Of a stretch of DNA of 40,430 nucleotides, positions 3,456 to 40,430 are shown in pieces. A model generated the notes under the pieces. That model was not told the DNA's origin. It did not search any database and saw only the letters and a program-made list of their open reading frames with translations. Positions within the stretch are counted from its first letter, which is position 1; each line of letters begins with the position of its first letter. Source of the DNA: a virus; IMG/VR virus record IMGVR_UViG_3300025297_000002; one strand, 5' to 3'. The translations under genes were made by a program, and so were the position numbers.

Positions 3456-3458
3456 GGC

Positions 3459-3803: not shown

Positions 3804-3815
3804 GGTCGCGATCTC

Positions 3816-8863: not shown

Positions 8864-8907
8864 GACGGGCTCCAACAAGTGAAGGAAGCCCGCGCGGGGT
8901 CATCCCT

Positions 8908-10524: not shown

Positions 10525-10790
10525 TATTTCGCCTCCAGCGCGGCCTTGCGCGCATACATCAGCGCCGTTTCGAGGTGCGTTGCGGCGATGCTCATGCGGC
10601 GTGAGCCGAACACATGATCCTGATGCTCGCCGGGCATGGTCGAGCCCTCGGCGTCATGCATTGCCGAGCGCAGCGCCTCGCCCGCCTCGGTGATGCGGGC
10701 AAGGTGCGTTTTCTGGTTTTCGGTGAGCGGCTGGCCCGTCTCGTAATTGACGGGCACAGCGCCGAGTACAGGGGCGTCACGCGGTCCCAT
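10524..10790 (-). CDS. Hypothetical small helical protein (88 aa)
   Basis: Internal ATG at 10790 (MGPRDAPVLG...). The C-terminal ...SRRMSIAATHLETALMYARKAALEAK pattern recurs in small phage proteins. Confidence 0.5.
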   Translation of the reverse strand: MGPRDAPVLGAVPVNYETGQPLTENQKTHLARITEAGEALRSAMHDAEGSTMPGEHQDHVFGSRRMSIAATHLETALMYARKAALEAK

Positions 10791-10983
10791 TTTTGGCCGC
10801 CTCGATTTCTTCCGGGGTTGCCTCGCGTTCGGAGATTTCGAACACCGTGGGGCCGCTGCCGTGCGCAATACCGAAAGAGCGCTGGACGTTTGAGCCTGGG
10901 CCAACCGTCACGGCATCTTCGCCATTGCGCTTGACGCTCGACACATAGTTGCCGTTGGTGGCGACAATGACGGTCGTGGTCAT
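10777..10983 (-). CDS. Hypothetical small protein (68 aa)
   Basis: Track ORF with an ATGA junction at 10980-83. Confidence 0.5.
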   Translation of the reverse strand: MTTTVIVATNGNYVSSVKRNGEDAVTVGPGSNVQRSFGIAHGSGPTVFEISEREATPEEIEAAKNGTA

Positions 10984-11177
10984 GGTGCGGCCCGCCGGAA
11001 GCCGTGGGCGGCTTCGAAGTCGTCTTCGGGATCATGCGGCTTGCCCTCGGGATAGGGGTCGCCGGCACCGATTCCAAGATCTTCGATGGTGGTTGCCGGG
11101 GCAGGCTGCACCGCTGGGCTGACAGGGTCGGCGGCGGCGCGCTTGGCGGGCTGGGTTTCGGTTTTCTTGTCGGTCAT
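10980..11177 (-). CDS. Hypothetical small acidic protein (65 aa)
   Basis: Track ORF with an AGGAGC RBS, directly after the portal stop. Confidence 0.5.
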   Translation of the reverse strand: MTDKKTETQPAKRAAADPVSPAVQPAPATTIEDLGIGAGDPYPEGKPHDPEDDFEAAHGFRRAAP

Positions 11178-11190
11178 TGGTCGTTTGCTC

Positions 11191-13581
11191 CTACATCATC
11201 GGGGGAGGCCGCAGGGGCGGCACAGGAAGGCCGCCAGCACCATTCGGGGCCGGTGGCGGGCCAGGAGGCCGAGCGCCTGCTGGCGGGCCTCCTGGGGGCT
11301 GTGGGCCACTGGCCGGGCTGGGTGCTCCTGCCGGCGGGGGCGCGCCGGGTGGCCCGACCGGCGGCGGTGGCAGGGGAGGCATTGCAGCTTGCATGGCGGC
11401 GGCTGCGCTGATCTGTTCTTGAAAGTCGTTGATCAGCTCGACAACGCCCCTGGAATAGCGCACCGGGTGGAGCGCCATTTTCAACATTTCCAGCCCGAGT
11501 TGGATCACTTGGTTAGGTGGCAGCATTTGCGTCATGAGCATGCCCTGGACGCCCTGCATGACGAGCTGCACCGATTGCATCACCATCGCCATGCCCTGCT
11601 GCTCGGCTTGCTCGTCGGGGGTGACGGTGCTGTCGGCCTCGATGTCGATTGCGCAAGTGCGTTGGAAGTCCGACCGAAGGATTGCCAACACCTCGGGCGT
11701 GACATCCTCGCCAGTCATTGCCGACAGCGTTTCGGCGTCGAAATTGGTGGCGATGATCTCGCCCTTGAGGCGCAAGAGGTCGCGAACGAAATTCCCGGCC
11801 TGCTGCTTTGCGTCCTCCAGGCGCGACACGCCCATTGAGCCCTTGATGCGCTGGGCGGTGGCCGTCTCTGAGGCCTTGGTCGCGCCGCGCATGATGTCGG
11901 AAATGCCCATGACCTCGTAAATCGCCTGCTTGGTCTGCTCACGGGCGAGGTAGAGCTTGTCGAGCGCGGTCATGAAGTCGACGACGGGCATCATCCAAAT
12001 GTGCGCCGACAGCCCGCCGGTGATCATGTCGACGCCCTCGACCGGGATCATCTTCTGATCGTCGGCGGTCAGGATGTCTTGGATTTCGCGCGACGCGGAG
12101 TTGTAAGCGCCGCGCACCTTGATCTGTTTTGTGAGGTTCGAAATGCGCAAGCTGACCTCGTCGAGGTCGGCGGCGAGGCGCGCATAAAGATCGTAATACG
12201 GGCGCGGAATGCGGGTGTCGGTCGTGGTGACGGCCAGCATGGGAACCGGGATCGGGAAAAAGCCCTCCAGGCCCAGGCTGTCAGGGTCGACGCGAAACAC
12301 GATGCCGGAAGCGTCGCGGCATAGCCAAATCACCCGGCGTTGCTGGCGGTCCCAAATCTCCCAAAGCATCGCCTTCTTGATTTTGCCGCCCAGCTTGTTG
12401 GCCGACAGCATCGACTGGCCGCCGCCTGGGGGCGATTTGGCAGCGCTCTCGTCGGTCCATTTGAAGAGATCGGCCAACTTGCCTTCGGCGGCCATGCGGT
12501 CGTATTCGGGCGAGCCGGCAAACTCGGTTTCGAGGTCTTGCTGGGTGAACAGATGCCGGAAGGCAATCCAGTTCATATCGGAGGCGGCGCGCACCGGGTC
12601 GCAAAGAAAATCCTCCCAGTAAACATATTCGTCGTCGACCTCCTCCCAAACCTTGATTTCCTGGGTTTGGGCGTCGCCGGTTTCCATGTTCGGCAGCGGC
12701 GTCACGCCGTCGCCGGCAAGCACCGGCACGGTCTTCATTTGCGGCTTCCAACGGACGCGCACGACGCCGCGCCCAGGCAGCAGCAAATCCTTGATCGCCA
12801 TCTTGACGGCCTCGTGCGAGTGCTCATCGTCGACCACGATTTCGAGCGCCTTTTCCATCACCGAGGCGGCGGTTTCGATGTCGCCCTGTTTCGGCCGCCC
12901 TGGGGCTGGCCTGGGGCCGGGCGGCGGCGGTGGCGGCATGGCGGTGCTGGACAAGAGCCCGGCGAGGCCCTGGGGCGGGCCAGGAGGCGGCACCACGATA
13001 GGCGCGCCATCCGGCGGGGGAATAGGGCCGCCCATAGCATCCGGCGCGCCCTCGGGCGCTCCCAAGGCCGGGGCTACGGGCGGCGGGCCGGGCGGCGCTG
13101 CAACGGGAGGCGCGGCCGGCGGTGCGCCAGCGACGGGGGAAAGCGGCCCCGGTGGCGGCATAGGAGGCCCGCCCAGGGGAGGAGCGCCGGGCGGGCCGGG
13201 CGGCATCATCGGGGGCATGGCCGGCGGTGGTGCCACTTTCACGAAACGTGAACGCACTACAGGCTGCGGCGGCTTCTGATAGATCGCCGGCAGCATAACC
13301 TCGGTGTTGGCGTAAAGGATGTTGAAGGTGATCGGCCCAGGCGCGAAGCGGGCCGCTTTCTGGTTCCGGGTTTCGTTCCGGTAAATCTGCACGATGTCGC
13401 GCGACCGCTTGCGCCAATCCTGCTCGGCCCGCTCGGCGTCGTCGAGGCAGTCGAGCCAATAGCTCTTGTCGACGCCGTCAACCGACATCGGGTCGGGCTC
13501 GTTTCCGGCCGGCTGCTGATCGGGCTTGCCGGTGTTGTTCGACGGCACCGAGGGCGGATTGAGATTGTAATCCTGGGCCAT
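11191..13581 (-). CDS. Portal protein (796 aa) with a ~114-aa proline-rich insertion and a ~63-aa proline-rich C-terminal tail
   Basis: Directly follows terL (TGATG junction). N-terminus ...FNILYANTEVMLPAIY... and body ...VRVRWKP...WEDFL... resemble podovirus portals. Size and position fit. Confidence 0.8.
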   Translation of the reverse strand: MAQDYNLNPPSVPSNNTGKPDQQPAGNEPDPMSVDGVDKSYWLDCLDDAERAEQDWRKRSRDIVQIYRNETRNQKAARFAPGPITFNILYANTEVMLPAIYQKPPQPVVRSRFVKVAPPPAMPPMMPPGPPGAPPLGGPPMPPPGPLSPVAGAPPAAPPVAAPPGPPPVAPALGAPEGAPDAMGGPIPPPDGAPIVVPPPGPPQGLAGLLSSTAMPPPPPPGPRPAPGRPKQGDIETAASVMEKALEIVVDDEHSHEAVKMAIKDLLLPGRGVVRVRWKPQMKTVPVLAGDGVTPLPNMETGDAQTQEIKVWEEVDDEYVYWEDFLCDPVRAASDMNWIAFRHLFTQQDLETEFAGSPEYDRMAAEGKLADLFKWTDESAAKSPPGGGQSMLSANKLGGKIKKAMLWEIWDRQQRRVIWLCRDASGIVFRVDPDSLGLEGFFPIPVPMLAVTTTDTRIPRPYYDLYARLAADLDEVSLRISNLTKQIKVRGAYNSASREIQDILTADDQKMIPVEGVDMITGGLSAHIWMMPVVDFMTALDKLYLAREQTKQAIYEVMGISDIMRGATKASETATAQRIKGSMGVSRLEDAKQQAGNFVRDLLRLKGEIIATNFDAETLSAMTGEDVTPEVLAILRSDFQRTCAIDIEADSTVTPDEQAEQQGMAMVMQSVQLVMQGVQGMLMTQMLPPNQVIQLGLEMLKMALHPVRYSRGVVELINDFQEQISAAAAMQAAMPPLPPPPVGPPGAPPPAGAPSPASGPQPPGGPPAGARPPGPPPAPNGAGGLPVPPLRPPPMM
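12892..13233 (-). repeat. Low-complexity proline-rich coding insert within the portal (residues ~117-230)
   Basis: APPPAMPPMMPPGPPGAPPLGGPPMPPPGP...PPPPPPGPRPAPGRP. The antisense frames give spurious Gly-rich ORFs in the track. Confidence 0.85.
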
Positions 13582-15068
13582 CAGTTCAACTCGTGCAGCT
13601 TGAAGGCGTTCGCGATGAGGTACGGATTGCGTTCCTCTCGGGTCGCGGCGATGGCGCGGTAGGGCCTCGACAGGCAGGCGTAGCGGGCATCGTCAACGGC
13701 GTGATCTTCGGCGTCGGTGTCGAGGTCTTCGGGCCGGTGCGCGTCGTGCTGCATCATCGGCAGGGTGCGGATGAGATCGCGGCAATCCTCGGTGAAGAAA
13801 ATCATCGGCTCGCCGTCCGCGTTGCCGACGAGGCGGGCGCGCAACTGATCCCAGCCGCCCATGCGCTTATCGCGGCTCGTGCGTTGATTGTCAGCGCGCC
13901 GGAAGATCGCCCCAGCTCGGCCCAAAACCTCGCCAATCGACGGGCCAGAGATCACCGCGAAGGCGGCCGGGTCGAGCACGCCGTAAGCGATGCGTTCGCG
14001 CTGGCCGTCGATGGTTTCACGGGAAACGATGCCAGCGCCCACGACCTCGGCCGGCAGCTTCAAGCCGACGTTCGGCTTGCCGCGTTCCATGCCGTACCAC
14101 TCGCGATATCGGACAATCGCGCCGCGCGGCAGCAGGCGGCCGGCGTGCTCGGTGTCGTCCTGCACGACGGTCCACCACCCGACCGAAAACGGCTTGGCAG
14201 AGCCCCAGTCCATCGACCGGAAGCGGGTCCACCAATTCGGGATTTGCAGGCGCGGGATGATGTGTCGGGCGGTCGAAAACTCGCCGAAGAAAGCGCCCTC
14301 GATGACGTTCCAATCGCCCTCCAGCCACGCCCGCACCAATTCGGACGAGCCCGAGGCTTTCAGCTTGTTGACGTAGCCAGGATCGTTTTCCAGTAGCTTC
14401 GGATTGTCGGCGAGGCGCGACGGAATGAAGATGCGAACGAGGCCGTTTTCAGGGTCTTTGAACGGGGCATAGGGGCCGATATCGATGGCCCAGGCCTTCA
14501 CCCAGTTATGGCCGGGGCCGCCTGGGTTGCACGTCGCGCGAAACTGGCACGGAATGCCGAGGGTCGAGCGAAGCGTTGCCAGGAGCTTCATGATCGGCCC
14601 AGGCATCGCGTATTGCGTCAGCTCCTCGACGTAGACGCGGGTCAAGCTCCAGCCCTGGTAATTCTGCGCGTCCTGGTCGCTTTCGAGGTAGGCGCACGTA
14701 AGCCGGCCGCCGTTCGCCATCTGGAAATAGCCGCCCTTTTCCTTCCATTGGGCGGCAGCGCCAAACATCTGCATGGCGGTTTGAATGGTGTCGCGGAGGT
14801 CTTCGCGGGTCTTGCGCACCATGAGGCCACGAGCGCCCGAGCCGTAGGTTTCCGAGTGTATCCACCATTCGCCGAGCGAACCGTGGGTCTTGCCGCCACC
14901 GCGAGCGCCGCCGAAAATCACGATGTCGGCCGGGCAGTCGACGAAGGCCTGTTGCGGCCCGGCCTGGGGCACAAAGCCGATCTCGACCATCCGCTGTTGC
15001 CGCACATGGAAGGTATCCGGCTTAGGCGGCGGCAACGGTTTGACGGTCGGCTGCGCGGCGTCCTTCAT
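13581..15068 (-). CDS. terL: Terminase large subunit (495 aa)
   Basis: ATGA overlap with the terS stop at 15065-68. Walker A-like GGARGGGKTHG. Nuclease-half motifs ...SMDWG...VLDPA. Confidence 0.9.
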   Translation of the reverse strand: MKDAAQPTVKPLPPPKPDTFHVRQQRMVEIGFVPQAGPQQAFVDCPADIVIFGGARGGGKTHGSLGEWWIHSETYGSGARGLMVRKTREDLRDTIQTAMQMFGAAAQWKEKGGYFQMANGGRLTCAYLESDQDAQNYQGWSLTRVYVEELTQYAMPGPIMKLLATLRSTLGIPCQFRATCNPGGPGHNWVKAWAIDIGPYAPFKDPENGLVRIFIPSRLADNPKLLENDPGYVNKLKASGSSELVRAWLEGDWNVIEGAFFGEFSTARHIIPRLQIPNWWTRFRSMDWGSAKPFSVGWWTVVQDDTEHAGRLLPRGAIVRYREWYGMERGKPNVGLKLPAEVVGAGIVSRETIDGQRERIAYGVLDPAAFAVISGPSIGEVLGRAGAIFRRADNQRTSRDKRMGGWDQLRARLVGNADGEPMIFFTEDCRDLIRTLPMMQHDAHRPEDLDTDAEDHAVDDARYACLSRPYRAIAATREERNPYLIANAFKLHELN

Positions 15069-15517
15069 TGCAGCGGCTCGCCAGGAAGACGCGGCACAAA
15101 TTTCTCGCGCCACTCATCCATCGTCATTTGCCGCTGTTCGGTCGGCTCACGCGCCGGCTTGCGCACGGTCGCGTCGACCTCGGCCTTGTCGACGATGAGG
15201 CCCAACAGCTTGGCCTTTGCCAGGACGGCACCAACACCGGCGGCCGGGTGCTTCATGCGCTTGGCGAGCTTGGCGAAATCATCCAGCTCGGCGACGAGCT
15301 GATCGACCGTCACGCCGATGCGGCGGGCTTGGTTGTCCTGCAATTCGGCGATGCGCGCCGCGATCTCGGGCTTGCGCGCCAGGGTGCCAGCATTCGAGCG
15401 AACATCGTTCGGCTTGCCCTTGGCGTAACCGGCGTAAATGTAGGCGTCATGGTTGCTCTTGCCCTTGGCGACGGCCTGGGCAAAGCGCTCGTGGCGTGGG
15501 TGCGGTAGGAGCGGCAT
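15065..15517 (-). CDS. terS: Terminase small subunit (150 aa)
   Basis: N-terminus PRHERFAQAVAKGKSNHDAYIYAGY... is typical of Terminase_2-type small subunits. Immediately upstream of terL. Confidence 0.75.
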   Translation of the reverse strand: MPLLPHPRHERFAQAVAKGKSNHDAYIYAGYAKGKPNDVRSNAGTLARKPEIAARIAELQDNQARRIGVTVDQLVAELDDFAKLAKRMKHPAAGVGAVLAKAKLLGLIVDKAEVDATVRKPAREPTEQRQMTMDEWREKFVPRLPGEPLQ

Positions 15518-18394: not shown

Positions 18395-19102
18395 TCAGGC
18401 CGCCAACGCTTTGCCATTGATCAAAACATTCACTCGGGCATCTGCTGGGGCGGAAATTGAAATGCTGATCTCGGGTCCAACAGATTTGGCGGGGTCGTCG
18501 GTCGCGGGCGACAGAAACCTACGGCAGGCATCATCCGAGCCGTTGAAGCGGTTGCTGTCGACGCCGGCAGCGATGCCGGGCACGGTGGCCTTGTCGGTCC
18601 ATTGCCAGAGCGACCACACCGGCCACGTTGCTTTCGGCCAGCTCGGGCCTTTGGCGCTCGTGTAGTGCGCAATCCAGAGCGACGTGAAGTCGGCCAGGAG
18701 CTGTTCACGGTCATTGCCGAGATCGCTCTTGAGCTTGCCGCCGCCGTAAACCGTGATCTGGAGATTGAACGGCTGGCGCACGAGCGCTTGCACGGCGTCG
18801 ACTAGGTCGGCCAGGGTGCAAGCCTCGTCCTCGTAATCGATCACCACGCGCTCGCCCTTCACCGGGTGCAGCACGTCGAGGAAATTCAGCATCTGCTGCT
18901 CGGCTTGGCCGTGCTTGAGAAAGTGGTAGCCGACGACAGCCAGGCCGGCGGCCTGGGCGCGCTCGCGACGCGGTGCAAAGGTCGGGTCGATGTAGCCGGT
19001 GCCCTCGGTCGCTTTCAGGATCACGCCGACGAGGCCGGCGCTTCTGAGCCGCACGAAATCGGGCTCGGGATTGTGGTGCGATAGGTCGATGACGGGGTCC
19101 AT
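18395..19102 (-). CDS. Endolysin, GH25 muramidase family (235 aa)
   Basis: VIDLSHHN...GVILKATEG..YIDP...GYHF...D.E... is the typical GH25 (Glyco_hydro_25) layout. GGAGG RBS. Confidence 0.8.
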   Translation of the reverse strand: MDPVIDLSHHNPEPDFVRLRSAGLVGVILKATEGTGYIDPTFAPRRERAQAAGLAVVGYHFLKHGQAEQQMLNFLDVLHPVKGERVVIDYEDEACTLADLVDAVQALVRQPFNLQITVYGGGKLKSDLGNDREQLLADFTSLWIAHYTSAKGPSWPKATWPVWSLWQWTDKATVPGIAAGVDSNRFNGSDDACRRFLSPATDDPAKSVGPEISISISAPADARVNVLINGKALAA

Positions 19103-25517: not shown

Positions 25518-25662
25518 ATCTGTGCAATTGCCGAATGACCCTGTTTTACGATATTCTCCTTAACGACCCTGCATTTGCATGGTTCGGTGTCGCTGGGAAA
25601 AATGGGGATTAAATTTTTTTTGGCGGCACTGTGGACAACGGCCTAACGAGGGGGGTTCCTCA

Positions 25663-26127
25663 ATGGCAAAGTCAGAAATGGAAGACGAAACGACACACGC
25701 GCGCGCCAAGCATGATGTCGTCCATTACATAAGAGAATGGCGCACTCACCGAGGCCTGACGGTTGACGGCCTGGGCGAGGCGGCCGGGATATCCGGCTCA
25801 ATGGTGTCGCAACTCGAAAGAGGGCGCACGACTTACACGCAAACCACCCTGCAAAAGATAGCGGAAGCATTGAATGTACAGCCTTGGAAGCTATTGGCCG
25901 CCGGCCCCGATGAAGATCAAAGATTGTGGACTGTAGTTCTTCAATCCAGCTTGCCAGAGATCGGCCTGGACCTCGACGAGGCTGGGAAAAACATCGTCTC
26001 GATGCTGATTTCTAACAATTACCGCGCAGCAATTCGGTCGGCCTGTTCGATCTTCGGCAAGGGCATCGTGCCCGATTTCGACGCCGACGAGTTCACTTTC
26101 AAATGGGAAGGCGGGCCGGGCGGTTAA
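25663..26127 (+). CDS. CI-like XRE-family repressor (154 aa)
   Basis: ATG at 25663 with a GAGGGGGG RBS. ...REWRTHRGLTVDGLGEAAGISGSMVSQLERGRTTYTQTTLQKIAEAL. No S24 peptidase motif seen. Confidence 0.7.
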   Translation: MAKSEMEDETTHARAKHDVVHYIREWRTHRGLTVDGLGEAAGISGSMVSQLERGRTTYTQTTLQKIAEALNVQPWKLLAAGPDEDQRLWTVVLQSSLPEIGLDLDEAGKNIVSMLISNNYRAAIRSACSIFGKGIVPDFDADEFTFKWEGGPGG

Positions 26128-31310: not shown

Positions 31311-31560
31311 GGTTTTCTTCCTTTGTTGCCATGAGGTCGGGGTCGATCTCGATTTCGTCGATGCCGTAGTTTTCGGCGACCAAGCGCCCGGCCTGGGTCG
31401 CCAGGGCTCGGCCGATGTCGCCACCGCAAACCATCGCCATGCACTTCTCATGACCTCTTTGCGGCCCTCGGGCGAGGATCAGGGACACGGTCCAGCCGTG
31501 CCCCCAATCTTCTCTCACCCGGCGGATGATCACCTTTTCGGTGATGGTGACGGCGTCCAT
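31282..31560 (-). CDS. Hypothetical protein (92 aa)
   Basis: TAATG junction with the integrase stop. Overlaps the next gene by 29 nt. Confidence 0.5.
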   Translation of the reverse strand: MDAVTITEKVIIRRVREDWGHGWTVSLILARGPQRGHEKCMAMVCGGDIGRALATQAGRLVAENYGIDEIEIDPDLMATKEENHDRNFAAQR

Positions 31561-32840
31561 TACGCCGCCGCCTTCAATTCGATGACATTCGAGCTGGTCG
31601 CAAACTCGCCCCAGGCCTGGAGGAGCGACCGGCGCGCGTCGAGCATTTCGTCGCGGTCATAGGCGCGCTGCACCTTGGTCCCGATGACGTGGCCCAGGGC
31701 CAGCTCGGCGGCCTTCTCGTCGAGCTTCCGAGCCGAAACCCAGGTGCGGAACGTGGCGCGCATGCCGTGCGGCGTGGCCTTGCCGCCCAGGCCCAGGCCG
31801 CCCTTTGCAACCGGGTCGATCAGCTTGTCGCGCAGCGCGCCCTCGTTCACCGGCTTTTCGCCGCCCAGGCCCCAAAACACGAAATCCGACAGCGCCGACT
31901 TGTGGCAGCTTTCGAGCACCGCCACGGCGGCATCCGACAGCGGCACGATATGCTCGCCGTTCTGCGCGTCGCCGTTGTCGCTCTTGTTGCGCTCGGCCGG
32001 CACGACCCAGGTCCGCGACTTGAGGTCAATTTCCGACCACCGAGCACCGCGCGCCGCATCGGTGCGAACGGCGGTGAGCGTGGCGAAAGCCAGGGCCTTG
32101 GCCGCGTTGCCATTCTTCGGGCCGATCAGCTTGCGGATCACGGCCGGCAGCTCGGCATAGGGCAGCGAGGCCTGCTTGCGCTTGGCGGCGGTGTCGCGCT
32201 TGCCCAGGAGCTGTTCGATATGGGCATCGAAGCGAGCCGGGTTCGGGCCGACATGCAGGCCGCGAGCAATGGCGAGATCAAGCACGGTTTCGACGCGAAC
32301 GCGAACGCGCTCGGCGGTGACATGGATGTCGTTCCAAATCGGCTTGAGCACCTTGACCACGTCATCGGTCGTGATGGTCGAGGCGCGCTTGATCAGCAGC
32401 GAACCGGCGTGGTTCTTGAGCGAATTGCGCCACTCGTCTTCCTGCTGGCACTTGCCGCCCTTGACCTTCCAATCGCTGCGCTTGGTGCCGTCGCCCTTCT
32501 CGCGCTTAATGACCTCGTCGAGCAACTCGGCGAACGTCACCGAGCCGGCCAGGGCGGCGCGCTTGGCGGCAATCTTGGCCTCGACCGGGTCGACGCCCTG
32601 CGACAGCGACAGGCGGGCGGCATCGGCGCGCAAGCGGGCCTCGGTAATGCCGACAGCGAAGGCCGCGCCAGCGCCGGTGTAAGAGCCCAGGCCCAACTCA
32701 CGCTGCTTGCCATTGGCGGCGCGATAGATGAAAAGCCAGGACTTCGCGCCGGTGGCCGACACGAGGAGATAAAGGTTGCGCCCGTCGCTGTAGCGGCCGG
32801 CCTTGAGGTTGCCATTGATGAATGCGGTGGTGAGCTTCAT
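31560..32840 (-). CDS. int: Tyrosine recombinase / phage integrase with a DUF4102-type N-terminal arm-binding domain (426 aa)
   Basis: N-terminus ...GRYSDGRNLYLLVSATGAKSWLFIY...GKQRELGLGSY. C-terminus ...HGMRATFRTW...LGHV...AYDR. Confidence 0.9.
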   Translation of the reverse strand: MKLTTAFINGNLKAGRYSDGRNLYLLVSATGAKSWLFIYRAANGKQRELGLGSYTGAGAAFAVGITEARLRADAARLSLSQGVDPVEAKIAAKRAALAGSVTFAELLDEVIKREKGDGTKRSDWKVKGGKCQQEDEWRNSLKNHAGSLLIKRASTITTDDVVKVLKPIWNDIHVTAERVRVRVETVLDLAIARGLHVGPNPARFDAHIEQLLGKRDTAAKRKQASLPYAELPAVIRKLIGPKNGNAAKALAFATLTAVRTDAARGARWSEIDLKSRTWVVPAERNKSDNGDAQNGEHIVPLSDAAVAVLESCHKSALSDFVFWGLGGEKPVNEGALRDKLIDPVAKGGLGLGGKATPHGMRATFRTWVSARKLDEKAAELALGHVIGTKVQRAYDRDEMLDARRSLLQAWGEFATSSNVIELKAAA

Positions 32841-32968: not shown

Positions 32969-33105
32969 ACCCTGATGAACCACCCCCGGCGGAGGAGATG
33001 TCCGCCGGGGAGGACGAGGGGGCATAATTTACCGCCTTGGTTTCGTTGCACTTTTCACCGATAATCCGTTTATTCGACATGCCTGCCCCCAGCGTTTACC
33101 ACAGC

Positions 33106-33127
33106 GGCGATTTTTTAACGTGGTTGC
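33106..33127 (+). repeat. Motif copy GGCGATTTTTTAACGTGGTTGC
   Basis: Direct repeat of 32947-68, 159 bp apart. The core AACGTGGTTGC recurs at 18332-42. Confidence 0.7.
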
Positions 33128-33153
33128 CTTCTCTCACGAATCGAAGCGACGTT

Positions 33154-33615
33154 TCAAGGCTGCGATGGCACCCGAGGCGGTGAGTTTTCCATGCGCTGGA
33201 GGGTTTGATTGGTGAGCGCAATCTGTGTCGAGATCGCCGAAAGCTGGGTGCGCATGTCGGCGAATTGGTTGCTGTAGCTCTCGGTCACGCGGCTGATGCG
33301 GTTGTCGGTGGTTTCATATTCCTTCTCCACCTGGGCCAGCCGATATTCAAACTCGGTCATTTTGAACAAGGTCGTGTCGATGCCTTTGATGCGCTCGCTG
33401 AGTGCGGCGAAGTTGCCGCGCATGTCGGCCACGAGATCGCGGTGCGCCGTCTCGTGTTGCGTGCGCCAATCTTCCAAATCGCCAACTCGCGACTGCGTCG
33501 TGCCCCAGGCGATGCCGACGAGCACGAACGTTCCCAGGAAGCCAGCGACCGAGATCACCGTGTTGAGGTTGATCGACTTTAGGTCGATGCTGCCGTCAGC
33601 CATGGCGACGTTCAC
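33154..33615 (-). CDS. N-terminal TM + long coiled-coil protein (i-spanin-like or exclusion protein, ~150 aa)
   Basis: ...VISVAGFLGTFVLVGIAWG followed by heptad-rich sequence. GTGA junction at 33612-15 (alternative ATG at 33603). Confidence 0.5.
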   Translation of the reverse strand: MNVAMADGSIDLKSINLNTVISVAGFLGTFVLVGIAWGTTQSRVGDLEDWRTQHETAHRDLVADMRGNFAALSERIKGIDTTLFKMTEFEYRLAQVEKEYETTDNRISRVTESYSNQFADMRTQLSAISTQIALTNQTLQRMENSPPRVPSQP

Positions 33616-33785
33616 GACGGCTTATTGGCCGGGAAAAGGAACGTGGTCACCGCCGCCAGAAGGACGGTCACCGCGCCCTGAATTTCCGGCGTCGCCAGCT
33701 CGGCGGGCAGGCCGTATTTCGACACGAGCACGCCGACGACGCCGCCGACGAGCGAGCCGTAAAACTTCGAATAATTGCCAAGCAT
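33612..33785 (-). CDS. Small hydrophobic holin-like membrane protein (57 aa)
   Basis: My own translation: MLGNYSKFYGSLVGGVVGVLVSKYGLPAELATPEIQGAVTVLLAAVTTFLFPANKPS. AGGAGG lies 5 nt upstream. Below the track cutoff in this frame. Confidence 0.5.
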   Translation of the reverse strand: MLGNYSKFYGSLVGGVVGVLVSKYGLPAELATPEIQGAVTVLLAAVTTFLFPANKPS

Positions 33786-33794
33786 GATGGCCTC

Positions 33795-34124
33795 CTACTG
33801 TTGAGCCTTTTTGGCCTTGGCCTCTTTCAGGGCTTGCGAAATGACGATGTAGGCGTTGGCCGCCGCGACGAGCACGGTGGTCGAGGTGGCATGCGAGGGG
33901 TCCGCACAAACCGGCTGGAGCAACGCCCAGGCCTGGGCCTCTCGGTCGATGGTCTTCTGCGACACTGCCCCGGTGGCGGCGACAGCGATAAAGCTCTCGT
34001 GCAGCGGCGTGGCGGCGGCGCAGAGCTGGGGCGCGGACTTCTGGATTGCCGCATCGATGTCGGTGACGGTTTGGCACCCAGCGAGCGCCAGGGCGCACAC
34101 CACGGCGACGATAAGTTTTTGCAT
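33795..34124 (-). CDS. Lipoprotein (109 aa; lipobox LALAGC)
   Basis: MQKLIVAVVCALALAGCQT... AGGAGAGGG RBS. Several further Cys residues. Confidence 0.65.
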   Translation of the reverse strand: MQKLIVAVVCALALAGCQTVTDIDAAIQKSAPQLCAAATPLHESFIAVAATGAVSQKTIDREAQAWALLQPVCADPSHATSTTVLVAAANAYIVISQALKEAKAKKAQQ

Positions 34125-34133
34125 TTCCCTCTC

Positions 34134-35213
34134 CTATGCCCAGTAGGTGGTGAGCTGGATAACCGGCCAGCTCGTGCCGGCCTTGGGTCCGAACAGTGAG
34201 CCGGTCGCGGTGTTGACATAAAAGTCACCATCGACGCCGGTGCTGCCGGTCGGGTCGACCGTGCCCGAAAGCAGATTGATGGCATCCGCGCCGGCCGGGC
34301 CGGTCGGTCCCGTCGCGCCGGTAGCGCCGGTCGCGCCAACGTCGCCGCGCGGGATCACGAAATTGATGGTCTGATTTGGCGCGGTGCCGGTGATGGTCGC
34401 ACTGGCGGCCGAGCCCGGCGCGCCAGTGGTGACCGTGCCGACAGTGAGCGTGTTTGCCGGGCCAGTCGCGCCAGTGGGGCCGATAGGCCCAGTGGGGCCG
34501 GTAGGTCCGGTCGGACCAATAGGGCCGGTCGGTCCCGTCGCGCCAATGGGGCCAGTCGGCCCGATGACGCCCTGCACACCCTGGATGCCCTGCACACCCT
34601 GGATACCTTGAACGCCCTGGATGCCCTGGTCGCCCTGGGGGATCATGAAACTGAGCGCCTGCATGGGGCTGTCGCCGGTGATCGTGACCTCGGCATCGCT
34701 GCCCGCCGGCCCCGTCTCGACGCTGGCGATAGACAGGACGTTGGCCGGGCCAGGGTTGCCTTGGATGCCCTGCTCGCCCTGCGGACCTTGGGGGCCGATG
34801 ATGGTCGGAATAGCCATCGGCGCAAGCGGGCCGTTGGTGAGATAGGCGCTGCCCTGGGTCGCCAGGACGCCGGTCGCAATGAGCCCGACCGGCACCGGCG
34901 GATCATCGGGATTTGGCGCGGCGATGCGCTCATAAATCTCGACCGAGTAGCCGCGAAGATCACCGAGGGCCGGCCCCGGCACGGTCACCATGGCGGTGCC
35001 GGCGGCGGCGTCGACCGTCTCGAAATCGTAGGCATAGCGCCCGCCGAAGCTGCGCGGCATCAGCACGAGCTGGGGCATCAGCTCGCCAGGGTCGACAGCG
35101 GCACCCAGCGGTGACAGGAACGCCAGCGTCAAATCCATTTCGACGCCGAGCGGGGTCCGCACCGACAGCTTGGCGGGCTCGACTGGATTGAGAAAAACGT
35201 TCCTGCTGATCAC
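34134..35213 (-). CDS. Collagen-like repeat tail fibre protein (359 aa)
   Basis: Three G-X-Y blocks (34746-96, 34458-634, 34290-343). GTG start at 35213 after AAGAGGG (the track start at 35297 overlaps the upstream gene by 70 nt). Confidence 0.8.
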   Translation of the reverse strand: MISRNVFLNPVEPAKLSVRTPLGVEMDLTLAFLSPLGAAVDPGELMPQLVLMPRSFGGRYAYDFETVDAAAGTAMVTVPGPALGDLRGYSVEIYERIAAPNPDDPPVPVGLIATGVLATQGSAYLTNGPLAPMAIPTIIGPQGPQGEQGIQGNPGPANVLSIASVETGPAGSDAEVTITGDSPMQALSFMIPQGDQGIQGVQGIQGVQGIQGVQGVIGPTGPIGATGPTGPIGPTGPTGPTGPIGPTGATGPANTLTVGTVTTGAPGSAASATITGTAPNQTINFVIPRGDVGATGATGATGPTGPAGADAINLLSGTVDPTGSTGVDGDFYVNTATGSLFGPKAGTSWPVIQLTTYWA

Positions 35214-35226
35214 GACAAAGCCCTCT

Positions 35227-35550
35227 TTAGGCTGCGTTGGCAAAGGCGGCGGCACGAGCGCCCCAAATCGAGGCCAGCACAAACTCGATGTCGCCATCGG
35301 GCACGGCGTCGCCGCCGTTGGCCTCGATGTTCTGCGAAATCGTGGCGTTCGACGCCACGAGGTGGAGGGCCAGCAGCAGGGCCTTGTCCTGGCCCGTCAT
35401 GACCAATCCGGCATAGTGGAGGCGGTTGGCATGGTCGGGCGTTGCAGGGTCTTCTGCTGCGACTTGCTGGGCCACCTTGAGGGCGAGGAACGCGACGCGG
35501 GTGTAAAACGTCGGGGTGCTTGCGGCAGCAATGATGTCCTTAGTTGCCAT
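35227..35550 (-). CDS. Hypothetical tail-fibre-module protein (107 aa)
   Basis: Track ORF, tightly packed. Confidence 0.55.
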   Translation of the reverse strand: MATKDIIAAASTPTFYTRVAFLALKVAQQVAAEDPATPDHANRLHYAGLVMTGQDKALLLALHLVASNATISQNIEANGGDAVPDGDIEFVLASIWGARAAAFANAA

Positions 35551-35863
35551 TGTAGATTTCTCCGAGGGTTGGGCCGCCGAAAAGGTCGTCGGGGGCGCTG
35601 AGGATTTGCTGGTCGATTTGGGCGTCGTCGATTGGCGCGGCGGTGTAGACCATCGTCGGAACGCCCTCGATCAACTCAAGCGTCGAGGTGTAATTGCCGG
35701 CCGGCGGGTCAGGCACGACGATGGTTGCGAGCCGGTAGTTTTCGAACGTCCAGCCATCCAGGGCCGGCGAAACTTGCACAAGGATTTCCGGGATATTGAG
35801 GGTGCCACCCTCGGGCACGGCGGCATTCACGATTTCGGTGTCGTCTTTGATCAGGGCGAGCAT
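35540..35863 (-). CDS. Hypothetical tail-fibre-module protein (107 aa)
   Basis: ATG at 35863 forms a TAATG junction (MLALIKDDTEIVN...). Confidence 0.55.
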   Translation of the reverse strand: MLALIKDDTEIVNAAVPEGGTLNIPEILVQVSPALDGWTFENYRLATIVVPDPPAGNYTSTLELIEGVPTMVYTAAPIDDAQIDQQILSAPDDLFGGPTLGEIYNGN

Positions 35864-36678
35864 TAGAAGCCACTCCAGCGCTTGAGAAACCGGGCGCGCA
35901 GCGCATCGCATTCGGCTTGGGTGAGTATCCGGTCGAACATGGCGAAGCCGTAGAGCCGGCGGCCGGCGGTCATCGCCGTTGAGCCGTCTGAGGTCAGGCC
36001 GAGCCGTGCGGCCAAGCTCGCGTTTGAGGCGCTGGGCGTGAAAGAGCTTGTGCCGGTGCTAATCTCATAGGTCGAGTTGCAGTAAAAGGCGGCGTCGCGG
36101 CTGGTGTTCGAGGTGATTTTTCGGCCCCAGCCATAGAGTTGGATGACATTATTTGCACCGGCGACGCTCGATTGTCCGTTGACTTGCTGCGAGCCGTTGC
36201 CCACGACCGATTGCGGAAAGAGGCCGGGCGCGTGCATGAGGCCGATGCCAACGGTGGTGTTGCCGATCACGCCGGTATGGGTGTTGAAGCCCGCGCCATA
36301 GCCGGTGGTCGTGAAGCACAGTTCAAGGGCCATCCATTGGGCACCGATCTTGTGCAGGCTGTTCAAAAAGGTGTCGTTCGCACCCGAGGCGAGCGAAAAG
36401 CCTTGGCCGCCCGCGCTGCTCCAATATTCGTTGGCGCTCATGTCGCCCACGGTGCCGACAAACGACGGGCCGCTGGCAACCGGCGAGGCGGCCGAGCCCA
36501 GCGTGAAATGATAGCCGTTGCCGCTGACATCGAACCACGTCGAGCCGCTGCCCGGCCAACTGTTGCGGTCGCCGGGGTCGAGGCAGATTTTCAGGTTTGC
36601 CAAAAGCCCGGCACCCTTGATCAGGTTTTTGAGCCTCAAGTTTGGGCGCGACGTATAGGGCATCAGCGGCAGCGGCAT
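35863..36678 (-). CDS. LamG / concanavalin-A-like lectin-fold protein (271 aa), probable receptor-binding accessory
   Basis: ATG at 36678 (TGATG junction). ...WFDVSGNGYHFTLG...RLYGFAMFDRILTQAECDALRARF... is typical of phage LamG-like proteins. Confidence 0.55.
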   Translation of the reverse strand: MPLPLMPYTSRPNLRLKNLIKGAGLLANLKICLDPGDRNSWPGSGSTWFDVSGNGYHFTLGSAASPVASGPSFVGTVGDMSANEYWSSAGGQGFSLASGANDTFLNSLHKIGAQWMALELCFTTTGYGAGFNTHTGVIGNTTVGIGLMHAPGLFPQSVVGNGSQQVNGQSSVAGANNVIQLYGWGRKITSNTSRDAAFYCNSTYEISTGTSSFTPSASNASLAARLGLTSDGSTAMTAGRRLYGFAMFDRILTQAECDALRARFLKRWSGF

Positions 36679-37796
36679 CACGCCACCTGCTGAATGTTGA
36701 TCGTGCGGATGCCGCCGAAATGGACAATGCTGCAAAGGAAGCCCGCGCCGTTGGTTGTGGTGAGCGGGTCGCCGGTGATCGCATTCCAGCCCGAAAAAGT
36801 GATCACGCCGGCCGTGGCGCTGTTCGAAAGCCAAACAACCAGCGTGTAGGCTTTGGAAGCATCGCTATCGATAGCCCAGGTGAACGCGCCGCCGTTGGTC
36901 ACCATGCGGAAATTGCCATCGGCAGCGGTCGGCGCGTAGGTGCCGCTCGACTTGGTGCCGTCGTTGGTGAAAACGGACATCATCGCGCCCGCGCTGGTCA
37001 GCGTGATATCGCCCGTGAAAGCCTGCGCGCCCGACCAAGTGTAAGCGCCGGTGAAGGTGCCCGAGGCGAGGCCCTCGTGCATGATCCGGTAGGCGTTTGC
37101 GCCCATCGACCACCCGCCGACTTTCAGAATGTTGTCGGTGTCGAGGCCGAAATTGACCGCAAAGGCAGTGAGGCGGTTGAACGAAATAAAAGCCGCCGCG
37201 CCGGCATTGGTCGGGGCATTGACGACAAGGGCGGTGCCCGTATTGCCGCCGCTCTGTCCGATGGCCCCGACCGTCGACAGCGTGATGTTCATAATTGAAT
37301 TGAAGGTCTGTCCGGCGGTCCAGGTCTGCGCCGCCTCCAGTCGGCCGTAGGTGTAGGTTGCGCCGTTGATGCGGTGCTTGAGGCCGGCGTTGCCAGGATC
37401 AGGCCAGATGTCGCCATTTGCCGGCGTCGTGGGCGCGGCGGTGGCATTCGGGAAATTCACCGGCGGGGTGCCAGCAACGCCGGTCGGCAGCGTCACTTTG
37501 CCGGTGAAGGTCGGGCTTGCCAGGGGTGCCTTGAGCGCGTCGGCGGTGTCGACGTAGGTCTTGCTCGCCGCGTCGGTCGGATTGGTCGGTGCGCCCAGGT
37601 TGACGAGCTTTTTCCCGTTCATCGGGATGTTGGCCGTGGGCTGGGTCTGGCCGTCTTTGGTGATCGTGTTCGACAGGCCGGCGGCGATGTCGTCGTCGTT
37701 CTGGTCGTGACGGTCGGCGCGGATTTTGATCGCCGCCGCCGCGTCGTTGGTCCAGTCCATCACTCGGTTGAAATTGCCGCTGCCGTCGAAGGGCAT
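36678..37796 (-). CDS. Tail fibre protein (372 aa)
   Basis: N-terminus MPFDGSGNFNRVMDWTNDAAAAIKIRADRHDQNDDDIAAGLSNTITKDGQT...NGKKLVNLG..TNPTDAASKTYVD is the classic fibre N-terminal pattern. GGAGG RBS. Confidence 0.8.
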   Translation of the reverse strand: MPFDGSGNFNRVMDWTNDAAAAIKIRADRHDQNDDDIAAGLSNTITKDGQTQPTANIPMNGKKLVNLGAPTNPTDAASKTYVDTADALKAPLASPTFTGKVTLPTGVAGTPPVNFPNATAAPTTPANGDIWPDPGNAGLKHRINGATYTYGRLEAAQTWTAGQTFNSIMNITLSTVGAIGQSGGNTGTALVVNAPTNAGAAAFISFNRLTAFAVNFGLDTDNILKVGGWSMGANAYRIMHEGLASGTFTGAYTWSGAQAFTGDITLTSAGAMMSVFTNDGTKSSGTYAPTAADGNFRMVTNGGAFTWAIDSDASKAYTLVVWLSNSATAGVITFSGWNAITGDPLTTTNGAGFLCSIVHFGGIRTINIQQVA

Positions 37797-37805
37797 AGCC
37801 GCCTC

Positions 37806-39848
37806 CTATTTGTCCTGCTGTGCCGAACCGGCGAGCCCCAGGGCCGAAGCCAGGGCCGCCAGCGTGGCGACTTGTTGCGCTCGGTAGCTCATCGGCATGC
37901 CGCCTTCCCTGGTCGCCCAAGGGGGCAGCAAACCGGCCTTCTGATCGGCGTAGGTCGTGTCGCGCGGATTGGCGCGGTTCGCGTCGCCGTAAGGCCCGAA
38001 ATTCACCCAGGAGTTTTGTCCGCGCGTCTCGGTCGTGAGCGCCGGAACAGCGTCGGGCGAGAAAAGGCGCTTATGCGCCTGCCATGCATTTTCCTCGCCG
38101 CGCGCACCGAAGTTAGCACCTTCCATGCCGTGGCCGAAATAGTCATGCACGGCCCGGAATGCATCGTTGACGAGCATGTCGTGGCCGCCGTGGTTGATGC
38201 CGGTCGGGGCGAGCATCGGATTGTCGGCGGCCGAGGCGTTGACCGAGCCGAAACCTTGCTCGGTCGGGAACACCGAAAGATGGTTGTTTGCCCTGAGATC
38301 GGCGAGCGCATCGCGCGGGCCGCCTGGGTATGGGTCGGGCGCTCCAGGCTTCAAGAAATCGATCTTGGCCCCGCTGTCGAGCATGGCCTGCCATTGCTTC
38401 ATCGTCTCGTCGGCGAGGGCCTGATAGGAAGCGGCAACGCGCGGGTCGGCCGGGTCGTGCGGCATGCGGTCATAGGCCTGGGCGATGTAGCGGCCCCGGC
38501 GCGGGCTCACCTCGGCATAGGCGGGCTGGCGCTTTAGATCGATGCCGGCGCGGCGCGCATATTCCTCGGCCGCCGCGTTGACGGCCGGCACCGGCCCCTC
38601 GACGTGCGGCGGCGCGCCTTTGAGCGGGCCGAAGTCCATAGCCTCGCCACCGGCGGGCGCGGCCGGCCGTCGCACGATCTGGAAAAGGTCTGGCACGTCC
38701 TGGGTTTCCCAGGGCGGAATTTCGCGGCGCTGTTCGGGCGTGAAATCCTGCCGGGCCTGGACATTGCGCGCCTCGACCTCGCCGGCAAGGTGCTGGTAAC
38801 CGGCGCGCGGCCCCTTCACGTCGATTGCATTGAGCGCCTGATGGCGCAAAGCCTCGTCCTCGGGATTGGCCTTGCTCCATTCGTCATAAGCCGCCTGGAG
38901 CGCGGCGAGCCGGTCGCGGCCCTCGACGCCCTCAAGCCCTTCAAGGTTCGGACCATATTTCGCATCGACAAAGGCGCGACGATTGCCGGCGATGGCGCGG
39001 TGAATGTCGGCCGCGCGCTGGCCCACTTCGCGAGCCTGGGGAACGAGCGTGTTGTCTGCCGGATTGCCGCCGCGCGGGAAGCCCTCGGCGCGCTGCGCGG
39101 CGTGTTGCAGCTCGTGCAGGCCAATGTCGCGCACATCGGCAATGTCCTTGCCGGCGGCCTGGAGGGTGTTGCTCGGCGCGTCGAACATGCCGCCGCGAAA
39201 GGTCGGGTCAAGCGAAACGCTGGCGTCGATCTCACGCAACTGCGGGTGGCTGGCGTACAGCTCGGGATGATTGATCACGCCGGCCGCCTTGCCGGTGTAC
39301 CCAAGGAGGTCGCCATCGTCGGCCGGCTGTTTGATGGTGCGGGCGGCCGGGTCGCTCACCTTGGCTGGGGTGTCGTCGATCTCATATTTCCAATCGCCGT
39401 GCTGCTTGAACCACCCGGTTTTTTGCAGCACGTCCTTTCGGCTTGCGCCGCCCTCGGCCATCGACTTGGCGAGCTGGAGCGCCTCACGGTCGGCGAGCTT
39501 CGAAGCGGCACCCAGGAAGATGGCTTTCATGCCGGTGCCGACATCAGGAACGACACCCACGGCGTTAAGGCCGGCCCCGACATAGTCGCCGTGCTTGAGA
39601 TTGCGGGCGGCGTCCTCCGCTGCAATGGCCGTTCCGGTGCCGGGGAAGGCCCCCAGGAGCGTCATGCTGTCCCGCCGGGCCTCGTCATACGGCTTGCCCG
39701 AGATCGCGTTTGCAGCGCCTCCCATGAGGTCCGCAAGGCGGTCCCGCCAACTCGGGTTGTAATTTTCCGCATAGGTGCCGGTCGGCGAGGGCGGCGGCTC
39801 GGCCTGCCCTGCTTTCCACTTCCTAATGAGGTCATACTTATCTGCCAT
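37806..39848 (-). CDS. Large two-part virion-module protein (680 aa) with a zincin-like HExxH motif and a His-rich C-terminal domain; polyvalent/ejected effector candidate
   Basis: HELQH at 39102-16 followed by ...AEGFPRGG...GEVEARN. C-terminal ...NDAFRAVHDYFGHGMEGANFGARGEENAW... Lies between an ejection protein and the tail fibre. Confidence 0.6.
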   Translation of the reverse strand: MADKYDLIRKWKAGQAEPPPSPTGTYAENYNPSWRDRLADLMGGAANAISGKPYDEARRDSMTLLGAFPGTGTAIAAEDAARNLKHGDYVGAGLNAVGVVPDVGTGMKAIFLGAASKLADREALQLAKSMAEGGASRKDVLQKTGWFKQHGDWKYEIDDTPAKVSDPAARTIKQPADDGDLLGYTGKAAGVINHPELYASHPQLREIDASVSLDPTFRGGMFDAPSNTLQAAGKDIADVRDIGLHELQHAAQRAEGFPRGGNPADNTLVPQAREVGQRAADIHRAIAGNRRAFVDAKYGPNLEGLEGVEGRDRLAALQAAYDEWSKANPEDEALRHQALNAIDVKGPRAGYQHLAGEVEARNVQARQDFTPEQRREIPPWETQDVPDLFQIVRRPAAPAGGEAMDFGPLKGAPPHVEGPVPAVNAAAEEYARRAGIDLKRQPAYAEVSPRRGRYIAQAYDRMPHDPADPRVAASYQALADETMKQWQAMLDSGAKIDFLKPGAPDPYPGGPRDALADLRANNHLSVFPTEQGFGSVNASAADNPMLAPTGINHGGHDMLVNDAFRAVHDYFGHGMEGANFGARGEENAWQAHKRLFSPDAVPALTTETRGQNSWVNFGPYGDANRANPRDTTYADQKAGLLPPWATREGGMPMSYRAQQVATLAALASALGLAGSAQQDK

Positions 39849-39876
39849 TGAAGCGTCGCTTCACTTCGCCTATATT
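39848..39876 (+). promoter_or_regulatory. Near-consensus sigma-70-type promoter TTGAAG-N17-TATATT, antisense to the late operon, overlapped by the palindrome TGAAGCGTCGCTTCA (39849-63)
   Basis: Read directly. It sits in a 132-nt gap in an otherwise gap-free operon. Confidence 0.5.
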
Positions 39877-39903
39877 CGGGGTCGGTTTTGAAAGGGGTCC
39901 ACC

Positions 39904-39984
39904 ATGCTTGCCTTTGTCGGTTTCGTTGCAGTCCTCCTTGGCTTCATCGCGCTTAACCTCGCCATCGACGCCATCTTCGGTTAA
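39904..39984 (+). CDS. 26-aa hydrophobic peptide MLAFVGFVAVLLGFIALNLAIDAIFG (single TM helix)
   Basis: My own translation. AAAGGGG RBS 6 nt upstream of the ATG. Followed by GGCCGC-N10-GCGGCC-TTT (39996-40020). Confidence 0.4.
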   Translation: MLAFVGFVAVLLGFIALNLAIDAIFG

Positions 39985-40430
39985 TTGAACATGCCGGCCG
40001 CTCCCGCACCGGCGGCCTTTCCCGCCTCGCGCTCCAGCGATTGCTGCATCATGAGCCGCGCGAGCTGCGCCCTCGTCGGCACCATCTGAAACGGCATTGC
40101 CGGTTGACGGGCGAGTGAGCCCGTCGAGATCAGCCGCACCAAGTCATCGCCCGCATCTTCCGACATCCGATCAGCGGCCATCCTGGCGGCTTTGCCGGCC
40201 CCGTAGAGCGCGCCCGAGCCGCCCAGGCCGACAAGTGCCGCCGTGGTCGGTTCTGCCCCGTGTAGGAGCGCGCCCAGGCCGCCAGCGCTGCCCAGGATGT
40301 TGCCCTGCACACCAGCCATAGGCCCCGAGCCGCCGAAGCGGTTGCCGAAGCTGCGCAGCATGTTTTGAACCGGCGAGCCCTCGACCACCCTTTCCATCTG
40401 CCCCAGCTCCTCGGGCGAGTAGGGATTGAA
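39981..40430 (-). CDS. C-terminal part of the 548-aa Gly-rich ejection protein whose start is at 1324 (wraps through the circular junction)
   Basis: In phase with 1..1324 once the 127-nt overlap is collapsed: (1324+323)/3 = 549 codons. The track ORF 39981..40397 is only the piece after an internal Met. Confidence 0.75.
   Translation of the reverse strand, partial: FNPYSPEELGQMERVVEGSPVQNMLRSFGNRFGGSGPMAGVQGNILGSAGGLGALLHGAEPTTAALVGLGGSGALYGAGKAARMAADRMSEDAGDDLVRLISTGSLARQPAMPFQMVPTRAQLARLMMQQSLEREAGKAAGAGAAGMFN
40304..40430. repeat. Terminal overlap copy 2, identical to 1..127
   Basis: Exact 127-nt match to the window start. Its position inside a CDS argues for assembly circularisation rather than physical genome ends. 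Confidence 0.95.

Follow-up and report, generated by a model that had tools for sequence, protein, structure and literature searches.

What does a short gap between two late virion genes hold when the strand opposite to those genes is read? The question arises for the IMG/VR virus record IMGVR_UViG_3300025297_000002 (40,430 nucleotides, nt; hereafter the window, i.e., the whole stretch of DNA analysed), in which 132 nt separate the minus-strand genes for a 548-amino-acid (aa) and a 680-aa late protein. A sequence-only reading of this DNA had proposed that the gap holds a self-contained expression unit on the plus strand, comprising a promoter, a palindromic operator, a ribosome-binding site, a single-pass hydrophobic peptide of 26 aa and a closing hairpin. 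The core of that proposal stands, as the promoter, a Shine-Dalgarno (SD)-like element and a transmembrane (TM) open reading frame (ORF) recur in about 12 related lineages. We conclude that the unit is probably a moron-type cassette for a predicted inner-membrane micropeptide, placed antisense in the late operon of a temperate phage, where it separates two virion genes. Its cargo makes up a new family, so far missing from annotation, within an already known type of element, the moron.

All the elements were located where the sequence-only reading had placed them. The predicted promoter consists of the -35 hexamer TTGAAG at positions 39848 to 39853 of the plus strand, also picked up by a consensus scan, and the -10 hexamer TATATT at 39871 to 39876, separated by a 17-nt spacer; CTATAT occupies 39870 to 39875, and a G-rich CGGGGTC comes next. 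Base 39848 is common to the -35 hexamer and the minus-strand ATG of the 680-aa gene (it is the complement of the A), and the start codon of that gene is embedded in the cassette promoter. Promoter geometry alone predicts transcription to start at 39881 to 39885, 5 to 9 nt past the -10 hexamer, which would leave a leader of about 20 nt. An SD-like AAAGGGG (39891 to 39897), kept in the related locus L023, lies 6 nt upstream of the ATG of the peptide ORF (39904 to 39984, plus strand, stop included). The encoded 26-aa single-helix peptide, MLAFVGFVAVLLGFIALNLAIDAIFG, has a maximal hydrophobicity (Kyte-Doolittle mean over a 17-residue window) of 2.78; only 0.3% of background ORFs reach at least 2.75. 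Its TAA (39982 to 39984) shares two bases with that of the converging 548-aa gene (39981 to 39983). The CTATAT -10 and the 17-nt spacer resemble the rhizobial housekeeping consensus, CTTGAC-N17-CTATAT.

The comparison with other genomes used metagenomic relative loci, designated by L-numbers and found by two routes: homology to the flanking-gene proteins (L001, L023, L045 to L053, L055 to L062 and L070) and a promoter DNA pattern (L063, L064, L066, L067, L069 and L072). Every cassette-bearing relative carries CCATTG-N20-TATATT-(S/R)GGG, where CAT is the start codon of the 680-aa gene or its counterpart (the tail gene) and TTG the beginning of the -35 hexamer. This TTG is invariant and at the same position in 14 of 14 aligned lineages, as is TATATT with its fixed 17-nt spacer. 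Eight of the promoter-bearing loci (L001, L023, L045, L047, L048, L052, L053 and L059) were retrieved via protein homology alone; for these, promoter conservation is not circular because no promoter sequence was used to find them. Across 12 distinct lineages the first ORF starts 24 to 36 nt past the -10 hexamer, about 5 to 10 nt after an SD-like variant (AAGGGGGAAA, GGAG, AAGGAG, AAGGAA, CAGGAG or AAAGGA) that is easily recognised in most lineages but weak in L066. L067 and L070 are 97 to 98% identical to the window and encode the same peptide, and the exact 26-aa peptide is found on 6 contigs in the protein collection. A scan of genome contigs with a corrected 18-base promoter pattern gave 18 matches where about 17 were expected, with mixed GC contents and unrelated flanks, and these were rejected as chance and yielded no host genome; L024, L065 and L073 to L086 were likewise discarded as chance matches.

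Behind this constant promoter the cargo varies widely. L023 encodes a 27-aa homologue of the window peptide, MLELLGFVLVLVLFVVGNFAIDAIFPN, and peptides related to it, of 27 to 36 aa, are found in L063 and L064 (27 aa each), L072 (32 aa), L066 (36 aa) and L053, whose cassette encodes 77 and 31 aa. Other cassettes carry ORFs of 40 aa (L045), 42 aa (L001 and L047), 68 aa with two TM helices (L048), 69 aa (L059) or 76 and 73 aa (L052), and in L069 three or more small ORFs form an operon whose first two products are tail-anchored. At their C termini the short peptides have a loose motif in common, (D/N)-x-x-F-(G/P): that of the window ends in ...NLAIDAIFG, with one acidic and one aromatic residue, and its relatives finish in FGD, FPD or FPHADD. 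In all 12 lineages the best 17-residue segment of the first ORF has a Kyte-Doolittle mean of at least 1.8, and of at least 2.2 in all but one, values reached by 3.3% and 1.8%, respectively, of 338 background ORFs of 24 to 90 aa in the window. Independent gene callers annotated the opposite-strand ORFs of 40, 42, 68, 76 plus 73, 77 plus 31 and 69 aa, and the 26-aa ORF itself was called as a gene by the IMG pipeline in L070. Every relative with a gap at this site shows this arrangement. The comparison shows the promoter to be a constant socket, fused to the start codon of the putative tail or ejection gene, and the cargo behind it, in operons of one to three genes, to be exchangeable. Separately, L045 encodes another antisense TM peptide, of 41 aa (MFFLGLGIGFVVGIVACIGGIQAFAWWVDRGFEVALKVPKP), at 4755 to 4880 on the minus strand of the locus, between two tail-fibre genes; the Logan gene caller annotated it, and 3 contigs carry it.

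Does the selected product reside in the peptide or in the transcript? An informative pair is L063 and L064, whose peptide ORFs have the same length at 46% nucleotide divergence, compared with 1.7% in the promoter and leader, 7.7% in the tail gene and 20% in the downstream gene. The differences fall 17/5/15 on codon positions 1/2/3, and this sparing of second positions fits selection for hydrophobicity on the plus strand and is atypical for coding on the opposite strand. The two segments (L063 4217 to 4400; L064, minus strand, about 2830 to 3000) come from the same metagenome (Ga0193743) with near-identical promoters and flanks, and the contrast between their peptides could represent either coexisting alleles or peptide replacement. 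The cassette ORFs of L001 and L047 show two differences, both synonymous, while the peptide core of the window and L023 is 35% divergent versus 23 to 33% at the 4-fold degenerate sites of the flanking genes. The short peptides diverge faster than their flanks, some of them several-fold, and keep their length and hydrophobicity. A diversity-generating retroelement as the source of the hypervariability was discarded, no template repeat of the peptide region being found in the window.

The same figures can be read differently if the peptide ORFs are incidental and the antisense transcript, or the act of transcription, blocks read-through of the virion genes in lysogens. Under such an RNA-only explanation the promoter and leader would be expected to be the best conserved part and the ORF the least, as they are in L063 and L064; the -35 hexamer is placed on the start codon of the tail gene, and without a terminator transcription would run antisense into the 548-aa gene. 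We nevertheless regard it as unlikely, since an SD-like element, a start codon and a TM ORF are found in 12 of 12 lineages although the sequences are unrelated, at a chance of about 2 to 3% per ORF. The preferential retention of second codon positions, the exact ORF length retained at 46% divergence, and the cassettes of 270 to 520 nt in relatives, which hold clear protein genes, also argue for a protein product.

A further alternative is that the gap is explained by what lies on its minus strand, either a 34-aa ORF (39974 to 39870) or a 5' leader or hairpin of the tail gene. The 34-aa frame is open in L023 too, with conserved ends; the palindrome would fold as a hairpin right before the AUG of the tail gene; and in L048 and L052, which lack the palindrome, the SD of the tail gene (GGAGGG and GGGGAG, respectively) stands in its place. 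However, the 34-aa ORF shares its third codon positions with the peptide ORF, so that it is open as a by-product, and has no SD. Its start, its frame (relative to the conserved TATAGG) and its stop are not kept in L063, L064, L066, L001 and L045, and on this basis the ORF was rejected as the explanation of the gap; a conserved minus-strand small ORF, which the sequence-only reading had named as evidence that would overturn it, does not hold up across the relatives. On the minus strand, moreover, the L063/L064 substitutions amount to a conserved first and a free second codon position, which is atypical for coding; there is no good minus-strand reading of an invariant TATATT fixed at 17 nt from TTG, and the longer cassettes are clearly plus-strand coding. 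Conservation for the sake of the minus strand is accordingly very improbable as an account of the locus.

That the cassette is an insertion is supported by relatives in which it is missing. In L055 there is no gap: the stop of the upstream gene overlaps the start of the tail gene, and promoter and ORF are both absent. The upstream proteins of L055 and L059 share 41% identity over their full length and in both loci the downstream protein came up as a homologue of the window's tail gene, yet L059 carries a 69-aa antisense gene at the site where L055 has none. L056 to L058 and L060 to L062 are likewise without a gap. The GC content of the gap is 0.553 against 0.641 for the genome, and in 7 relatives the gap lies 4 to 11 points below its locus. 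Morons are recognised as inserts between genes that are adjacent elsewhere, with their own promoter, their own terminator and a deviating composition, that are carried by temperate phages and expressed from the repressed prophage (PMC3594210).

The hairpin that the sequence-only reading took to close the unit does not provide the terminator. The stem-loop GGCCGC-N10-GCGGCC-TTT (39996 to 40020, plus strand) lies within the coding sequence of the converging 548-aa gene, its stem is followed by only TTT, it was not called by a terminator scan, and it is absent from the minimum-energy fold. These results led us to reject it as a terminator. The predicted plus-strand transcript as a whole is less structured than shuffled sequences (z = +1.4). 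The stem-loop is conserved in L023 because of the protein coded on the other strand, and it is probably not a functional part of the cassette.

The palindrome does recur in relatives. TGAAGCG-T-CGCTTCA (39849 to 39863, reading alike on both strands) is a perfect 15-bp dyad that extends over the -35 hexamer and into the spacer; read as the minus strand, it occupies positions -15 to -1 relative to the AUG of the tail gene. The window has no other copy of the exact dyad. About 8 of 14 lineages retain an inverted repeat in register, and similar dyads lie displaced by 2 nt in L053 and 5 nt in L066. Over the 14 aligned lineages, 75% of the dyad cells pair; shuffles give 62% (none of 500 reached the observed value) and slid registers 26 to 44%. 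There is one clean double change (TGCAG/CTGCA, in L072). The same TTGAAGC-N3-GCTTCA recurs at a second antisense promoter in L059 and L068, 2.9 kb downstream, where it overlaps the -35 hexamer of TTGAAG-N17-TAATGT. That second cassette (L059 5360 to 5440, with the dyad TGAAGC-GTG-GCTTCA at 5398 to 5412; L068 600 to 614) drives a gene for a soluble 66-aa protein beginning MVKHRIDWNGTQ, which suggests a control element shared by several antisense morons. Thus, of the operator proposed by the sequence-only reading, the perfect dyad and its recurrence stand, whereas the immunity region holds no second copy with two or fewer mismatches (a CI-type operator was rejected on this ground) and the repeat is kept in only about 8 of the 14 lineages. 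The dyad is a recurrent accessory of these antisense promoters and may act as a DNA operator or as a late-mRNA hairpin ahead of the next late gene. A near-copy with two mismatches, CGAAGCGACGTTTCA, at 33142 to 33156 abuts the stop of the last tail-module gene (33154 to 33615); such near-copies are at chance level (5 matches with two or fewer mismatches versus 1.8 expected), and there is no convincing promoter nearby.

If the unit encodes a membrane peptide, what kind is it? The sequence-only reading had pointed to the type I toxins of the Ibs, ShoB or TisB class. A module of this sort would consist of a membrane-depolarising toxin with the late mRNA, or an undetected small RNA, as antitoxin, and would serve addiction or abortive infection. 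Type I toxins have fewer than 70 aa, one TM region and a short polar or aromatic C terminus, and their loci are typically isolated (PMC2887945). The size and hydrophobicity of the 26-aa peptide fit, although its C-terminal cluster falls short of the charged or bulky ones reported there; any late transcript running across the gap is complementary to the peptide mRNA throughout, and in relatives of the L001 type the SD lies within a 6-bp leader hairpin. As in the Ibs/Sib, ShoB/OhsC, TisB/IstR and Hok/Sok systems and the prophage examples BsrG/SR4 and YonT/SR6, there is a hydrophobic product of fewer than 70 aa with one TM region, a mobile-element context and the possibility of a complementary RNA. 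Unlike those systems, the cassette has no dedicated small-RNA gene, promoter or structure. No promoter-like site was found on the minus strand of 33000 to 40430, the minus-strand RNA of the gap forms less stable folds than shuffled sequences (z = +1.39), Rfam has no family at the locus, and the leader in the window is predicted to be about 20 nt and unstructured, with an accessible SD. Neither the peptide nor its relatives match a toxin family in Pfam, PHROGs or PADLOC (E ≤ 0.1; sensitivity is low at 26 aa), and the unit is packed tightly between genes, in contrast to the isolated type I loci described in PMC2887945. A late mRNA as the sole antidote would moreover leave the toxin unopposed in the lysogen. 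The cargo of relatives, i.e., two-TM and tail-anchored proteins of 68 to 77 aa and the soluble 66-aa protein at the sister promoter, is variable, not toxin-like and fits a moron slot better. Lacking toxin homology, a dedicated antisense promoter and a structured RNA, the toxin assignment was not sustained, and we consider a type I module quite unlikely.

Small TM proteins such as the cassette products could also serve as accessory lysis or holin-like peptides expressed late, and some relatives carry tail-anchored coiled-coil cargo with a weak resemblance to CCDC90/DUF1640 (E = 5e-4, below the Pfam cut-off). To our knowledge, however, 26 aa is well below the size of any known holin. The endolysin gene and its neighbours are encoded on the late strand, at a distance of about 19 kb when measured round the circle (about 21 kb by window coordinates), whereas the cassette reads against the late operon from a promoter of the housekeeping type. 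A role in lysis is hence highly improbable.

The favoured interpretation, a moron-type cassette, draws its closest precedent from phage HK97, whose gp15, a small exclusion protein of the inner membrane, is the product of a moron within the tail operon; prophages are also expected to hide unrecognised proteins of fewer than 50 aa (PMC3594210). The likeness to the HK97 gene 15 moron lies in extra DNA between virion genes that lie next to each other in a related phage, an own (here predicted) promoter, a GC content below that of the surroundings, the tail or ejection module of a temperate phage as location, and a small predicted inner-membrane product. The HK97 gene 15 moron is reportedly the prototype (work credited to Juhala et al. 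in 2000 and Cumby et al. in 2012). It differs from our cassette in that the latter is antisense to the late operon with its -35 hexamer overlapping the start codon of a neighbour, has no recognisable terminator, encodes cargo of just 26 aa unrelated to gp15/YebO (no Pfam match), and belongs to a single promoter socket that takes many unrelated cargoes. Single-helix inner-membrane proteins of 20 to 50 aa, often unannotated, that bind larger membrane proteins are represented by the MgrB, AcrZ, KdpF and SgrT class. The cassette peptide is similarly small, single-helix and easily missed in annotation, but members of that class are chromosomal, conserved in sequence and tied to partner operons, while the cassette family is phage-borne, hypervariable and found in a moron slot.

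Expression in the lysogen and an exclusion-type role are plausible because the phage is temperate, as its gene content indicates (see below). Superinfection exclusion, or modulation at the membrane level, is the role we would tentatively rank as the likeliest, by analogy with HK97 gp15, given the position beside putative tail or ejection genes and the hypervariability. The resemblance to the exclusion proteins HK97 gp15/YebO, T4 Imm and P22 SieA is one of functional analogy and not of membership. In such a scheme, host RNA polymerase would transcribe the cassette in the lysogen independently of the late programme, and the peptide would enter the inner membrane. Cassette transcription would converge into the 3' end of the 548-aa late gene and end without a dedicated intrinsic terminator, and in the lytic phase late transcription across the cassette promoter would occlude it. 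The membrane peptide would interfere with DNA ejection by an incoming phage, as HK97 gp15 does; the hypervariability would reflect an arms race, and the palindrome would be an accessory control element. More speculative, and in our estimation rather doubtful, is an extension in which the 26- to 36-aa peptides form an undescribed family of hypervariable single-helix micropeptides under diversifying selection that bind the membrane-inserting ejection proteins of related incoming phages, with the dyad as a shared operator or switch coordinating antisense morons with late transcription.

Several observations weigh against the moron interpretation or the role attached to it. Within this window alone, promoter and palindrome signals occur at chance frequency: across its full length, three consensus scans turned up 5 sigma-70-like sites versus about 5.9 expected, and perfect inverted repeats with 7-bp arms number 20 versus 22 ± 6 in Markov shuffles. 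The promoter that had been called striking in a genome of about 64% GC is therefore present as described, but promoters of its kind are not more frequent in the window than expected by chance; the unit stands out from chance because it is conserved in relatives. Promoter and SD are predictions, and the promoter conservation in L063, L064, L066 and L069 is circular, these loci having been found by a DNA pattern that contains the promoter. The low GC content of the gap could simply reflect the promoter and T-rich hydrophobic codons. The 18 differences between the window and L023 are distributed 7/5/6 by codon position with no synonymous change, and in a simulation of neutral mutation 12% of trials end with an open, hydrophobic ORF; taken alone, this pair is therefore weak coding evidence. 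The terminator scan and the fold give no intrinsic terminator 3' of the ORF, and one classical moron feature is thus lacking. Finally, no cassette product matches Pfam, PHROGs or PADLOC at E ≤ 0.1, a search whose sensitivity is low at 26 aa, and in the same collections there is no family match to characterised exclusion proteins.

The genomic setting is that of a complete phage. The contig, circularly permuted and complete at 40,303 bp, is given in the window with its ends overlapping by 127 nt (1 to 127 identical to 40304 to 40430). The 548-aa late gene spans the contig junction (minus strand, 1324 to 1 plus 40430 to 39981), its 3' part (39981 to 40430) being the one that converges on the peptide ORF. 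The ORF lister gave just its last 138 codons, and the separate 138-aa converging gene of the sequence-only reading is in fact the C terminus of the 548-aa protein. A PHROG search identified an integrase (31560 to 32840), a helix-turn-helix (HTH) repressor-like gene (25579 to 26127), an endolysin (18395 to 19102, late minus strand), a terminase (13581 to 15517), a portal protein (11191 to 13581), a major head protein (7910 to 8878) and a RecE-like exonuclease. We infer that the phage is temperate because of the integrase and the repressor-like HTH gene. The 90% cluster of the integrase includes fragments of 45 to 52 aa named "branched-chain amino acid transport system permease protein" by IMG, which may be a mis-annotation or a hint at the integration site.

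The late virion block, all on the minus strand, comprises a 428-aa protein, the 548-aa protein, the gap, the 680-aa protein and collagen-like tail fibres. The gap had been described as the only sizeable one in this operon; a rough ORF map gives other possible gaps of 276 to 1041 nt in the virion-gene block. Apparent gaps in the late region on that map lie at 3456 to 3815, 10150 to 11190 and 35551 to 35862; a minus-strand frame is open throughout 35540 to 35870, and the last of them is therefore probably coding. The 680-aa virion protein (37806 to 39848, minus strand) is a putative tail or ejection protein with an LPD23 domain, one of the large-polyvalent-protein domains, and a conserved C-terminal domain that has more than 1,000 homologues in metagenomes. 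Its counterparts in relatives measure about 380 to 485 aa. An extra middle module of about 300 aa (38650 to 39550, residues ~100 to 400) includes LPD23, and the L023 version appears to fuse the N-terminal 100 aa straight to the C-terminal domain. Among cultured phages the window has no close relative, the sole match being this C-terminal domain, which resembles "lysin" or "polyvalent" proteins of cyanophages and an Octadecabacter phage.

Proteins of fewer than 50 aa are largely absent from phage annotation, and the locus offers a clean comparative case, with a fixed promoter socket in a late operon and exchangeable small membrane cargo. Should the peptide prove to have no phenotype, the locus would still exemplify a convergent promoter set on the start codon of a neighbour. 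If the peptides are exclusion factors, they would provide a minimal, easily synthesised system for the block of phage DNA entry by a single helix, and the combination of a conserved antisense promoter, an SD and a TM micro-ORF would become a search rule for metagenomic phages. If the peptides of 26 to 36 aa bind ejection proteins, they would represent the smallest known class of superinfection-exclusion factor.

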